Part shown: positions 1,618-58,897 of the stretch, one piece after another | Layout: each line of letters opens with the position of its first letter | Numbering within the stretch: the stretch's first letter is position 1 | Assembly: GCF_013122565.1 (NCBI RefSeq) | Contig: NZ_CP053258.1 | From: Escherichia coli | Lineage (GTDB): Bacteria; Pseudomonadota; Gammaproteobacteria; Enterobacterales; Enterobacteriaceae | DNA: 64,000 bases | Strand: one strand, 5' to 3' | Position numbers and translations under genes: made by a program | Notes under the pieces: model-generated | Database searches by the model: none | Seen by the model: the letters and a program-made list of their open reading frames with translations, nothing else | What the model was told of the DNA's origin: nothing

Positions 1618-2427
1618 ATGAATGATTCACTCAAGGCGCAATGCGTTGCCGAGTTTTTGGGCACTGGACTGTTCCTCTTTTTTGGCATTGGTTGTTTGTG
1701 CGCCCTGAAAGTTGCCGGGGCAAGTCTGGGACTGTGGGAAATTTGTATCATTTGGGGGTTAGGGATTTCGCTTGCTGTTTACCTTACGGCAGGTATTTCC
1801 GGCGCTCATCTTAACCCGGCTGTTACCATTGCTCTGTGGCTGTTTGCCTCTTTCCCAGCCCGTAAAGTGCTGCCATTTTGTGTGGCGCAATTAGCGGGTG
1901 CCTTTGGTGGTGCGGTTCTGGCATATTCTCTATACAGCAATTTGTTTATCGATTTTGAATCTGCTCACAATATGGTGCGTGGTAGTGCAGAAAGTTTACA
2001 ACTCGCCAGTATCTTCAGTACTTATCCGGCAGCGGCGATTAATGTATGGCAAGCTGCGTTGGTCGAAGTGGTCATAACGTCCATGTTAATGGGGTTGATT
2101 ATGGCGTTGACCGATGACGGTAATGGCGTACCCAAAGGACCGCTTGCGCCTTTACTTATTGGTATTCTGGTTGCTGTTATTGGTGCTTCTACCGGACCAT
2201 TAACCGGTTTTGCCATGAATCCAGCGCGTGATTTTGGACCTAAGATTTTCACCTGGCTTGCGGGGTGGGGGGAAATTGCGATGACTGGTGGACGCAATAT
2301 TCCTTATTTCATTGTACCCATTATTGCACCGATCATTGGGGCATGTGTTGGTGCGGCGATTTATCGCTATCTCATTGCAAAGAATTTACCTGTCAATAGT
2401 GTAACGCCTAAAGAAATTAGCGAATAA
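1618..2427 (+). CDS. pduF: Propanediol diffusion facilitator (aquaglyceroporin/MIP family)
   Basis: ORF with ATG at 1618 preceded by aaagaagg RBS; MIP-family hallmarks (two NPA motifs: HLNPAVT and NPARD); the ORF track starts at a TTG at 1579. Confidence 0.85.
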   Translation: MNDSLKAQCVAEFLGTGLFLFFGIGCLCALKVAGASLGLWEICIIWGLGISLAVYLTAGISGAHLNPAVTIALWLFASFPARKVLPFCVAQLAGAFGGAVLAYSLYSNLFIDFESAHNMVRGSAESLQLASIFSTYPAAAINVWQAALVEVVITSMLMGLIMALTDDGNGVPKGPLAPLLIGILVAVIGASTGPLTGFAMNPARDFGPKIFTWLAGWGEIAMTGGRNIPYFIVPIIAPIIGACVGAAIYRYLIAKNLPVNSVTPKEISE

Positions 2428-36079: not shown

Positions 36080-36155
36080 TGGCTCCTCTGACTGGACTCG
36101 AACCAGTGACATACGGATTAACAGTCCGCCGTTCTACCGACTGAACTACAGAGGA
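36080..36155 (-). tRNA. asnT: tRNA-Asn (GUU)
   Basis: Identical 76-nt tRNA-Asn (reverse complement); upstream flank atcgtgtgaacggggcgcatatta is identical to that of asnV. Confidence 0.95.
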
Positions 36156-37146: not shown

Positions 37147-37236
37147 GGAGAGATGCCGGAGCGGCTGAACGGACCGGTCTCGAAAACCGGAGTAGGGGCA
37201 ACTCTACCGGGGGTTCAAATCCCCCTCTCTCCGCCA
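37147..37236 (+). tRNA. serU: tRNA-Ser (CGA)
   Basis: GGAGAGATGCCGGAGCGGCTGAACGGACCGGTCTCGAAAACCGG...TTCAAATCCCCCTCTCTCCGCCA read directly; 90 nt with a long variable arm. Confidence 0.9.
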
Positions 37237-37805
37237 CTTTATCAATGACTTATCTCCCGACTTCCCGCCTTGCTTTTCCTAAACAGAACAATCGTAGAAT
37301 ATTCTTGAAGGGTTAGATCGTCACTGTTTTCTGTTCGATACTGTGACATTCAGCACTTGATTCGCTATGGATCTGACAGGAAGGTTTCGAGCGAAAATGT
37401 GCAGTTATTCAGTCGTTTTCTTATCGCTCACCATTCTTCTTTTAGACATTCATCCTATGAAACTGCCGCAAAGTTGGTGGTGGGAACTGAAGTTGCGTAG
37501 AGAAGGGGTCAATAATTGAGCCAAAAAAGGAACGCGGCCGTCAGATTAAAGCCGCGGGACAAAGTCCATAATTTCCAAGAGTTGTTGAATTTCCCAGCTT
37601 TTTTGAAAGCCTTTGTATCATACTAACAAGTAAAAAAGGTTTAAATACCAAAATTAACCTGTATTTTTGATAAGTCTTACCATTGTACGATTTACACAGT
37701 TTCTGCTCCTCCTTGTTGATAGTGGAAAGAGTGCATTATGCACTTGCGTAAACATTTATGATGCGTTGATGTCCAGGGTTCACATTTCCTTGTCAGGGGA
37801 TCGAC

Positions 37806-38336
37806 TTATTTGCGGCGAGGCATCATTCGTAACAGAGTATTATCTTTCTGAATGTAGTGATGAAAGAGTGCTGCGCCAGCGTGAGCTGCGATTAAAAAGT
37901 AACCTATATTTGCCCAGGTTTCGTGAATATTTTTTATCAGTGCTTTAATTTCGCTGTTTGGGGTAACAAAGGGAGACACATTGAAACCAAGGAAACTCCA
38001 CGATTTTCCACTGTAAGCCATTAAAGCAATCCCCAGCAGAGGAAGCGCAAGGAAGGTTATATAAAGCATGATGTGCATTAGCGAAGCCGCTTTCATTTGC
38101 CAGGCAGGTGGCGGTGGCACAATAGAAGGATCACTATAACGGTGTTTTATAATCAGGCGTGAAAACATTAACACCCAAACGAATATACCCGCATTGTAAT
38201 GTGTTTCTCGCATCAGCAGATAAGTATTACTACCTTTAGGAAACCAGCCACGGAGTTCCATCGCGGCATAGGTTATTGCAACGAAAAGCAGCGTTATCCA
38301 ATGTAAATAAATTTGAGTTTTTGAGAATCGGTTCAT
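37806..38336 (-). CDS. yodB: Cytochrome b561 family protein
   Basis: Start trimmed to MNRFSKTQIYLHWITLLFVAITYAAMEL (176 aa); membrane di-haem b561 layout. Confidence 0.85.
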   Translation of the reverse strand: MNRFSKTQIYLHWITLLFVAITYAAMELRGWFPKGSNTYLLMRETHYNAGIFVWVLMFSRLIIKHRYSDPSIVPPPPAWQMKAASLMHIMLYITFLALPLLGIALMAYSGKSWSFLGFNVSPFVTPNSEIKALIKNIHETWANIGYFLIAAHAGAALFHHYIQKDNTLLRMMPRRK

Positions 38337-58159: not shown

Positions 58160-58897
58160 CTAGCTGTAAAAGCTCTGCGCCAGCGAACCGACCAGCAATT
58201 GCCAACCATCCACCAGTACAAACAGCATCAGTTTAAAGGGCAGAGCAATGGTGGCTGGGGGAACCATCATCATCCCCAATGCCATCAACACGCTGGCAAT
58301 CACCAGGTCGATAATCAAAAAAGGAATGAAAATCGTGAAGCCTATCTGAAATGCGGTTTTCAACTCGCTGGTCACGTAGGCCGGGAGCAAAATGCGCATC
58401 GGCACGGCTTCAGGTCCCTGCAACGGGCCGGTATTCGCCAGTCTGGCAAACAACCCTAAATCTGCCTCACGGGTCTGACGCAGCATAAACTCACGCAGCG
58501 GCTGCGCCCCTTTTTCCAGCGCCTCCTGCATTGATATTTTCTCTTCACTGAATGGCTGGTACGCATCGACATAAATTTTGTCGATCACTGGCGACATAAT
58601 AAAAAAGGTCAAAAACAGTGCCAGCCCCAGCAATACCTGGTTAGGTGGCGCGGAGGGTGTTCCCAGTGCGTTACGCAATAAACCAAAAACAATGATGATG
58701 CGGGTGAAACTGGTCATCATCAGTAAAATTGCCGGAATAAACGTCAACGAGGTGATGAACACCAGCGTCTGCACCGGGAGCGACCAGCTTTGTCCACCGC
58801 CAAGCAGCGGCTGGCTGGTGATACCCGGCAGTTGCGCGAAGGCGAGGGGCGTAATCAGCCAGAGAAGGACAGGTGCGACAGACAATAAACGACGCAT
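58160..58897 (-). CDS. fliP: Flagellar export apparatus protein FliP
   Basis: 245 aa with signal peptide. Confidence 0.9.

Follow-up and report, generated by a model that had tools for sequence, protein, structure and literature searches.

A candidate small RNA gene in the serU-yodB spacer

The spacer between serU, a tRNA-Ser(CGA) gene of Escherichia coli, and its convergent neighbour yodB probably holds an independently transcribed small RNA (sRNA) gene, which is homologous to an RNA cassette of lambdoid prophages and whose structure is conserved. The spacer was studied in a 64,000-nucleotide stretch of contig NZ_CP053258.1 (RefSeq assembly GCF_013122565.1), referred to from here on as the window, in which the gene order is yeeJ, asnT, mtfA, serU, yodB, zinT. 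An earlier note on this DNA had described about 570 bp of non-coding sequence 3' of serU, without annotation and with no island inserted. As written, this is correct but ordinary. The intergenic gap, measured from the tRNA end given by ARAGORN to the end of the yodB open reading frame (ORF), is exactly 569 bp (37237-37805), its counterpart in K-12 MG1655 (2,042,899-2,043,467) is of equal length, and no feature is annotated between the two genes in the curated MG1655 annotation, nor in the serU-yodB gap of the thousands of other E. coli genomes annotated with the Prokaryotic Genome Annotation Pipeline (PGAP). What does not stand is the treatment of the spacer as featureless: it holds a zone of Rho-dependent termination, an orphan RNA 3' end mapped in K-12, and a conserved small-RNA-like gene. 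We propose a composite region with no inserted element, in which an empty bacterial attachment site (attB), a Rho-terminated serU trailer, an RNA gene on the opposite strand and a variable yodB segment would adjoin one another. An unannotated spacer beside a tRNA gene should thus not be taken as empty.

The RNA is previously unnamed and is absent from the K-12 annotation and from Rfam; no family of Rfam 15 matches the module in the window or in the phage loci described below. Neither its sequence nor the term “serU-yodB” was found in the searchable literature. Its parts, all on the minus strand, are as follows.

37523-37611, minus strand: candidate small RNA of ~89 nt (phage-only covariance model, covariation, Term-seq 3' end, conservation)
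37611-37596, minus strand: 5' hairpin of the RNA
37595-37568, minus strand: A/U-rich linker with an 18-nt tandem duplication
37567-37557, minus strand: invariant hairpin, GGACUUUGUCC
37556-37533, minus strand: terminator stem-loop, CGCGGC..GCCGCG
37532-37523, minus strand: U-tract, UUCCUUUUUU
37612-37687, minus strand: promoter-like region and conserved A/T-rich upstream block, reaching ~37687 (promoter scan, comparison of copies)
37645-37640, minus strand: predicted -35 element, TTTAAA
37622-37617, minus strand: predicted -10 element, TATGAT, at a spacing of 17 nt

According to the proposed layout, a sigma-70-type promoter would drive the synthesis of an RNA of about 89 nt from the segment 37645-37523, ending at an intrinsic terminator; both promoter and length are predictions from the sequence. 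The terminator consists of a G+C stem of 6-7 bp followed by UUCCUUUUUU, giving the discrete, U-tailed 3' end that is typical of base-pairing sRNAs. The sequence TTTAAAC, followed after 16-17 nt by a TAnnnT hexamer, is kept in the core, prophage and Citrobacter plasmid copies of the module, while the spacer between the two elements differs. Due to its 18-nt tandem duplication, the linker of the core copy is longer than that of the phage copies. On the minus strand this duplication (37570-37605) reads CAAAAAAGCTGGGAAATT / CAACAACTCTTGGAAATT, with two UGGRAAAUU motifs.

Published data place an RNA 3' end at the predicted terminator in K-12. In the study of Adams et al. 2021 (PMC7815308), supplementary file 1 includes an “orphan” Term-seq 3' end at 2,043,181 on the plus strand of K-12, with the flank ...GGACTTTGTCCCGCGGCTTTAATCTGACGGCCGCGTTCCTTTTTT, and this position corresponds to 37523 in the window, the last U of the predicted tract. 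The 3' end is present in a later tab of the file, whose position suggests growth in lysogeny broth (LB) to an optical density (OD) of 2.0.

Homologues in lambdoid prophages and conservation of structure

Weak BLAST matches of the stretch 37523-37645 to a Salmonella IncF plasmid, a Citrobacter plasmid and phage vB_EcoS-683R6 were used to derive a 16-mer, CCGCGGGACAAAGTCC, which is contained in at least 120 IMG/VR contigs; almost without exception these are lambdoid prophages. At the IMG/VR loci that were checked, the 16-mer lies a few hundred bp from phage tRNA genes. Two annotated phage records, 683R6 and SerU-LTIIb, carry a module of ~160 bp that is opposed to late transcription and is flanked by the Q antiterminator gene, tRNA genes and an STnc100-like RNA on one side, and by a holin gene on the other. 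The window is alignable with this phage module over 37524-37680 (~157 bp). Phage-type copies are found in 221 of 5426 E. coli genomes; of 50,697 deposited phage records only 2 have one, and the SerU-LTIIb prophage is one of these two. No copy of the module was found in the cryptic prophages DLP12 and Qin of K-12.

A total of 56 unique extended segments was assembled, of which 4 were chance matches and 4 were core-type copies, and these were excluded. The layout is constant across 33 unique phage-type RNA sequences, and consists of an A/T-rich block, the TTTAAAC-16-17 nt-TAnnnT pair, a variable 5' hairpin, a variable A/U-rich linker, the invariant GGACUUUGUCC hairpin and the terminator. The 5' hairpin differs between lineages in sequence (GUCCCC/GGGGGC or GUCUCC/GGAGAC in phage lineages, GGCUUU/AAAGCU in the core copy and GUUCCC/GGGAAC in the Citrobacter plasmid).

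A covariance model built from prophage copies only (25 phage variants) finds the window copy at full length (37523-37613, minus strand, 52.1 bits, E = 1.4e-10), as well as the K-12 copy, with its end at exactly 2,043,181, and the copies on the two plasmids, both of which are of the IncF type. When 30 distinct sequences are aligned under the guidance of the model, 96.8% of cells pair, versus 41-55% when the partners are slid. Nine of the 17 pairs change on both sides, a number expected to be 3.2 and reached by none of 500 shuffles, and these include all six pairs of helix 1; compensatory change of this sort is what is sought in base-pairing sRNAs, the alignment being one that was fitted to the covariance model. 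The U-G pairs fit the minus strand only.

The same comparison bears on the suggestion that the region encodes a small protein. There are ORFs of 33-50 codons in the gap, including one of 36 codons at 37541-37651 (minus strand) and one of 50 codons at 37367-37519 (plus strand), and the latter has a hydrophobic stretch. However, core and phage copies pass through the conserved GGACTTTGTCC-CGCGG block in different reading frames, making a peptide unlikely, no ORF has a Pfam match, and the 50-codon ORF lies in the most variable segment, with a start codon context that, as read from the sequence, lacks a Shine-Dalgarno element. A small-protein gene was therefore rejected, its probability being close to nil.

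Two further observations concern the phage copies. On one prophage contig (L025) a second, more diverged copy of the module is found at 1962-2050 (minus strand, 58 bits), in which the terminator stem is altered (AGCGACC/GGUCGCG) and the 5' hairpin and linker are different; collection by the exact 16-mer therefore did not cover the full breadth of the RNA family. In phage 683R6 (L010, 1222-1418, plus strand) the module faces a weak STnc100-like match (22.9 bits) in convergent orientation, and at 1419-1500 it is followed by a second terminator-like hairpin on the minus strand (CACGAG..CTCGTG and a T-run) with another copy of GGGACAAAGTCC, so that the 683R6 cassette may carry tandem terminators.

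Conservation within E. coli and probable origin

The RNA sequence is strongly conserved within E. coli. It is present in 5417 of the 5426 genomes (99.8%), including K-12, and 4736 of these 5417 copies (87%) are identical, whereas a control 89-mer only 55 nt away (37380-37468) is matched in only 3105 genomes and identical in none. Across eight local haplotypes the RNA varies at a single site, and the 286 nt of segment A at 19 sites (Fisher p = 0.055). Conservation extends to ~125 nt upstream of the terminator, over the -35/-10 pair and the 5' hairpin.

Outside E. coli the picture is different. The serU tRNA is identical at 90 of 90 positions in Salmonella, in Citrobacter and in an Escherichia relative (the MtfA protein of which is 90% identical), but its downstream flank in these organisms is unrelated past ~17 nt. 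As far as sampled, the spacer with its RNA module therefore seems to be specific to E. coli. A strict species-wide scan with a 28-mer yielded only two contigs of metagenome-assembled genomes, both of them E. coli contamination, and is thus uninformative on other species.

This restricted distribution, along with the lack of annotation and of an Rfam family, is what could be expected if the locus were an empty attachment site followed by neutral filler, with nothing functional past the tRNA 3' end. We regard this as highly improbable, since neutral DNA would not account for a block identical in most genomes beside one identical in none, nor for a match to the phage RNA model at E ~1e-10 with compensatory changes.

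As the phage and plasmid copies are diverse and the core copy lies beside a phage attB, capture from a phage is the most likely direction of transfer for the core copy. We suggest that a phage cassette became fixed in the E. coli chromosome next to a phage attachment site, and that it now acts as a regulatory RNA in trans. A further explanation holds the module to be a decaying prophage relic by the attachment site, possibly with incidental transcription and without host function. It would fit the homology with a lambdoid cassette, the position adjoining attB, the absence from the locus in other genera, and the lack of a known target or Hfq signal. Nevertheless, decay is difficult to reconcile with a sequence that is shared by 5417 of 5426 genomes, varies much less than the DNA next to it, has all three helices and the promoter-like hexamers intact and is surrounded by no other phage DNA, and we consider the relic explanation improbable.

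Relation of the RNA to yodB and the case for a separate gene

The distal end of the gap belongs to a segment that varies among strains.

37688-37805 (118 bp): distal gap, 3' flank of yodB (matches ending at query position 584, strain GF131, k-mer junction mapping)
37806-38336, minus strand: yodB (cytochrome b561 family), convergent neighbour (ORF list; K-12 and PGAP annotation)

This yodB segment is ~990 bp long (~37688 to ~38678), comprising the 118 bp of gap, yodB itself and the yodB-zinT spacer. In ~44% of complete E. coli genomes it is swapped for ~220 bp of unrelated DNA, which rejoins the window sequence at the terminator and stop region of zinT; the yodB form is found in ~3058 of 5422 genomes, and the annotation of strain GF131 is an example without yodB. 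The earlier statement that the serU flank runs directly into yodB is thus true of the present strain and fails for the ~44% of genomes in which the last 118 bp and yodB are replaced.

The alternative that has to be weighed most carefully is that the hairpin and U-tract are a distal terminator of yodB, at the end of a long 3' untranslated region, or else a generic terminator cassette, and that there is no independent sRNA. The hairpin and U-tract share the strand of yodB and lie 283 nt downstream of its stop codon, so that the Term-seq 3' end could stem from yodB readthrough; yodB has only a weak hairpin right after its stop codon, as read from the sequence; and Term-seq is blind to the 5' end of an RNA, no evidence of a transcription start having been found. 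On the other hand, the RNA module and its upstream block, including the predicted -35/-10 pair, are kept in both the yodB and the yodB-less forms of the locus, which argues against the module being the mere end of the yodB mRNA. The prophage and plasmid copies likewise have no yodB upstream. Moreover, the ~125 nt of conserved upstream sequence, the fixed spacing of -35 and -10 and the covarying 5' hairpin would be needless in a bare terminator. For these reasons the terminator explanation appears unlikely to us, while being the one to take most seriously.

Several observations weigh against an independent sRNA gene in the spacer. The covariation comes from an alignment shaped by the model that it supports, and hairpin 2 and five terminator pairs never vary, although hairpin 2 and the outer terminator pairs were in part bound to be invariant, since the phage copies were collected by an exact 16-mer. 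The read count at 2,043,181 is modest (2241) and the position is not in the LB OD 0.4 list (PMC7815308), and the Cappable-seq entries listed include no start site close to the predicted one. Tree et al. 2014 (PMC4104026) report eight core orphan Hfq peaks in O157 Sakai, and none of them is at this locus. The covariance model finds no module beside serU in Salmonella, Citrobacter or the one Escherichia relative. The only target idea tried, a sponge that mimics GcvB targets in the manner of AgvB and was suggested by a CAACAAC motif, was rejected because the duplex energies are no better than those of shuffles. Taking these points together with the evidence above, an independently transcribed sRNA gene remains the explanation to which we attach a fair degree of probability.

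Comparison with known small RNAs and possible function

The slot occupied by the phage homologues is known for its sRNAs. AgvB and AsxR (Tree et al. 2014, PMC4104026) resemble them in their position, which is downstream of PR', tRNA genes and morons, precedes the lysis genes, opposes late transcription and is convergent with an STnc100-like sRNA; they also resemble them in having a variable 5' part and a conserved 3' part with an intrinsic terminator. The slot is shared by the phage homologues only (683R6 and SerU-LTIIb), whereas the window copy is chromosomal and fixed in the core genome. In addition, the terminator is GCCCGAACCC..GGGC in AgvB/AsxR and CGCGGC..GCCGCG here, and the lengths are 51-60 nt and ~89 nt, respectively. 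Identity with AgvB or AsxR was rejected, as there is no match to RF02702 or RF02703 and the sequences from Sakai Sp10 and Sp5 do not align.

PasA, PasC and the EcOnc32-type sRNAs (Pearl Mizrahi et al. 2021, PMC8550237; Zhu, Shabalina and Storz 2026 preprint) are similar in length (~80-110 nt), in being encoded on the opposite strand directly upstream of a holin gene, in having a conserved 3' end and a divergent 5' part, and in their proximity to STnc100/PasD-like RNAs. The Pas sRNAs are reported to be accessory and missing from K-12, unlike the present RNA with its presence in 99.8% of E. coli genomes. The module is not PasA, PasB or PasC, the published probe and seed sequences of which differ (PMC8550237); PasD (~172 nt) lay outside this sequence comparison. 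In Sakai Sp3 the corresponding slot, upstream of the holin gene, is taken by a different pair of RNAs, EcOnc13 (a PasD homologue) and EcOnc32. The sequence of Sp3 EcOnc32 is unlike the module and the covariance model has no match in Sp3 or in the examined Sp6 region, so identity with EcOnc32 or with an RNA of the Sp6 region was also rejected, as was identity with yodE or RyeG, both of which map elsewhere. The RIL-seq (ligation-based sequencing of interacting RNAs) tables of enteropathogenic E. coli have no “yodB” entry and no entry for the serU gene. Given the different RNAs found in the same slot in Sp3 and elsewhere, lambdoid phages appear to carry alternative small-RNA cassettes there, of which the present family is one more.

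With its variable 5' seed part and conserved 3' scaffold, the RNA would have the arrangement of a base-pairing sRNA. By this reasoning, the linker may serve as the seed for pairing in trans, and the conserved 3' part as a protein-binding scaffold. A more specific idea is that the domesticated cassette is a host modulator of prophage lysis or superinfection, and not an ordinary housekeeping sRNA. Its GGACUUUGUCC and terminator scaffold, being shared with the prophage cassette, might compete for the same protein partner; alternatively, the RNA might pair with phage late transcripts, and so act on incoming or resident lambdoid prophages that carry a homologous cassette. This is conjecture, to which we assign a low probability. 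If confirmed, the sRNA gene would extend the repertoire of phage-borne sRNAs by a member in the core genome and would be a clean example of a phage cassette captured beside an attachment site.

A weak match to the RNA model is present elsewhere in the window, at 58432-58516 on the plus strand (16.9 bits, E = 0.033). It depends mainly on a U-tract and a stem resembling that of a terminator, and an unrelated terminator is its probable source.

serU as an attachment site

The features at the serU end of the gap that relate to integration are the following.

37147-37236, plus strand: serU, tRNA-Ser(CGA) (ARAGORN; Rfam tRNA, 57 bits), its 3' part being the attachment core
37175-37253: attB core for serU-specific lambdoid prophages, made up of the 62-nt block repeated at attR and an imperfect extension of ~17 nt
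37223-37236: 14-nt repeat used by a second class of elements, resembling integrative and conjugative elements (ICEs) (matches from query position 124; annotated EC100 region)

It is practically certain that the gap is an uninterrupted serU attB. Three megablast comparisons were made with 5,426 complete E. coli genomes. In the one with a junction probe of 181 bp over the tRNA and its flank, the serU junction was found to be contiguous in 3855 of 5422 genomes, the window included, and interrupted in 1567 (29%), in keeping with the general remark in the earlier note that tRNA-Ser genes are frequent integration sites. The occupying elements were looked at in two of the interrupted genomes, one holding a lambdoid prophage and the other an ICE-like element. 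In strain 2013C-4361, a 48.5-kb lambdoid prophage with nleC has an intact serU at one end and a partial serU copy at the other; its integrase gene ends 52 bp from the tRNA, and the partial copy begins at the equivalent of 37175. The repeat flanking the prophage is the 62-nt 3' segment of serU (37175-37236 in the window), identical at attR, and the SerU-LTIIb prophage record (GenBank KU052038) has the same attR. The imperfect extension of ~17 nt beyond the tRNA end resembles the phage P' arm, matches at the left prophage junction (attL) reaching query position 113/114 at 94% identity. The element of strain EC100 (pilV, TraD and, at its distal end, a tyrosine recombinase) is bounded by the 14-nt repeat starting at 37223. 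Comparison with junctions in other strains, proposed as a check on the earlier note, thus shows that integrase-bearing elements are flanked by repeats of 62 nt or 14 nt, in which the 3' end of serU recurs at the far side of the element.

The window has the empty form of the site, in which the tRNA is joined to its native flank with no second copy of its 3' end and no integrase fragment. The best local match of the last 62 nt of the tRNA within the gap is of 10 nt (score 18) and is equalled in 107 of 500 shuffles; a 19-nt repeat of 74% identity at 37776-37794 was considered as a remnant of an attachment site, and was rejected as being at chance level in the shuffle test. A tblastn search with five integrases, including those of serU-resident elements, had a best E value of 0.18 in an 851-nt target, and a Pfam search of the ORFs of the gap had no match at E ≤ 1, so that protein remnants, whether of an integrase or otherwise, were rejected. 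With both the direct repeat and the integrase fragment lacking, the classification of the gap as an unoccupied attachment-type site is well supported, as are the separate statements on repeat and integrase in the earlier note. The two serU prophages (SerU-LTIIb, KU052038, and the nleC prophage of 2013C-4361) use the same tRNA gene and have its 62-nt 3' segment as their end repeats; the difference is that in the window nothing is inserted and no remnant is left. An empty attachment site is ordinary, and is useful only as a reference state for typing serU-borne prophages and islands.

Several observations were made on related sites. The attL tRNA of 2013C-4361 (L007, 48968-49057), with its phage-derived 3' half, carries a compensatory change from A-U to G-C in the variable-arm stem, which maps to ~37190-37205 in the window; the tRNA-Ser(CGA) expressed in lysogens is therefore slightly altered, and the crossover must be 5' of this position. 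The neighbouring tRNA-Asn gene, asnT (36080-36155), is likewise unoccupied in the window, and in strain GF131 it holds the yersiniabactin high-pathogenicity island with its integrase (L002, 3557-5056). In an Escherichia relative and in Citrobacter, the DNA directly 3' of serU resembles a phage P' arm (GTCAGTGACACAnATCCC..TTGAGAAAA; L139 and L144, 3600-3817; L143, 2714-3817), accompanied by an integrase in L143 and by none in L139 or L144, which suggests that these flanks are decayed remnants of attL.

Termination downstream of serU and the captured host flank

The proximal half of the gap comprises two overlapping features.

37237-37480, plus strand: serU 3' trailer and zone of Rho-dependent termination (Rho data, base composition, no intrinsic terminator)
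37237-37514 (278 bp): host flank carried by phages with a lambda integrase behind a fossil serU attR, at 96-97% identity

Rho-dependent termination occurs downstream of stable-RNA genes. No intrinsic terminator follows serU on the plus strand in a terminator scan, and the first 64 nt of its trailer are C-rich and G-poor (19 C and 7 G, a C:G ratio of 2.7). In K-12, readthrough from serU is terminated by Rho: supplementary file 2 of Adams et al. 2021 (PMC7815308) reports a region of Rho termination at 2,043,225 on the minus strand, equivalent to 37479 in the window, with a Rho score of 38.97 (p = 2e-241) and with reads falling from 7705 to 24 without bicyclomycin, and from 9053 to 1099 with it. 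Readthrough into the segment from 37237 to ~37480 would accordingly be stopped by Rho, which probably loads on the C-rich trailer as its utilization (rut) site. With an untranslated, C-rich trailer and strongly bicyclomycin-sensitive readthrough, serU behaves like other stable-RNA genes terminated in this way; there is nothing unusual in it, and it explains the proximal half of the gap.

The 278 bp following serU (37237-37514) are 96-97% identical in the free lambdoid phages ev099, mEp332 and PhiR70_1 and in three phage-like “plasmid” records. By alignment, the order in the three phages is P arm, 62-nt tRNA part and 278 bp of chromosome. Each of them has a single serU fragment and a canonical lambda phage attachment site (attP) beside int; the fossil attR, which the three “plasmid” records carry as well, is in the b-region, ~2 kb from lambda attP and int (L005 and L004, 3940-4278). 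The idea that the first 278 bp of the gap are a phage remnant in the host was therefore rejected, as these phages use lambda attP and int and keep the flank behind a fossil attR, so that the transfer of the 278 bp ran from host to phage.

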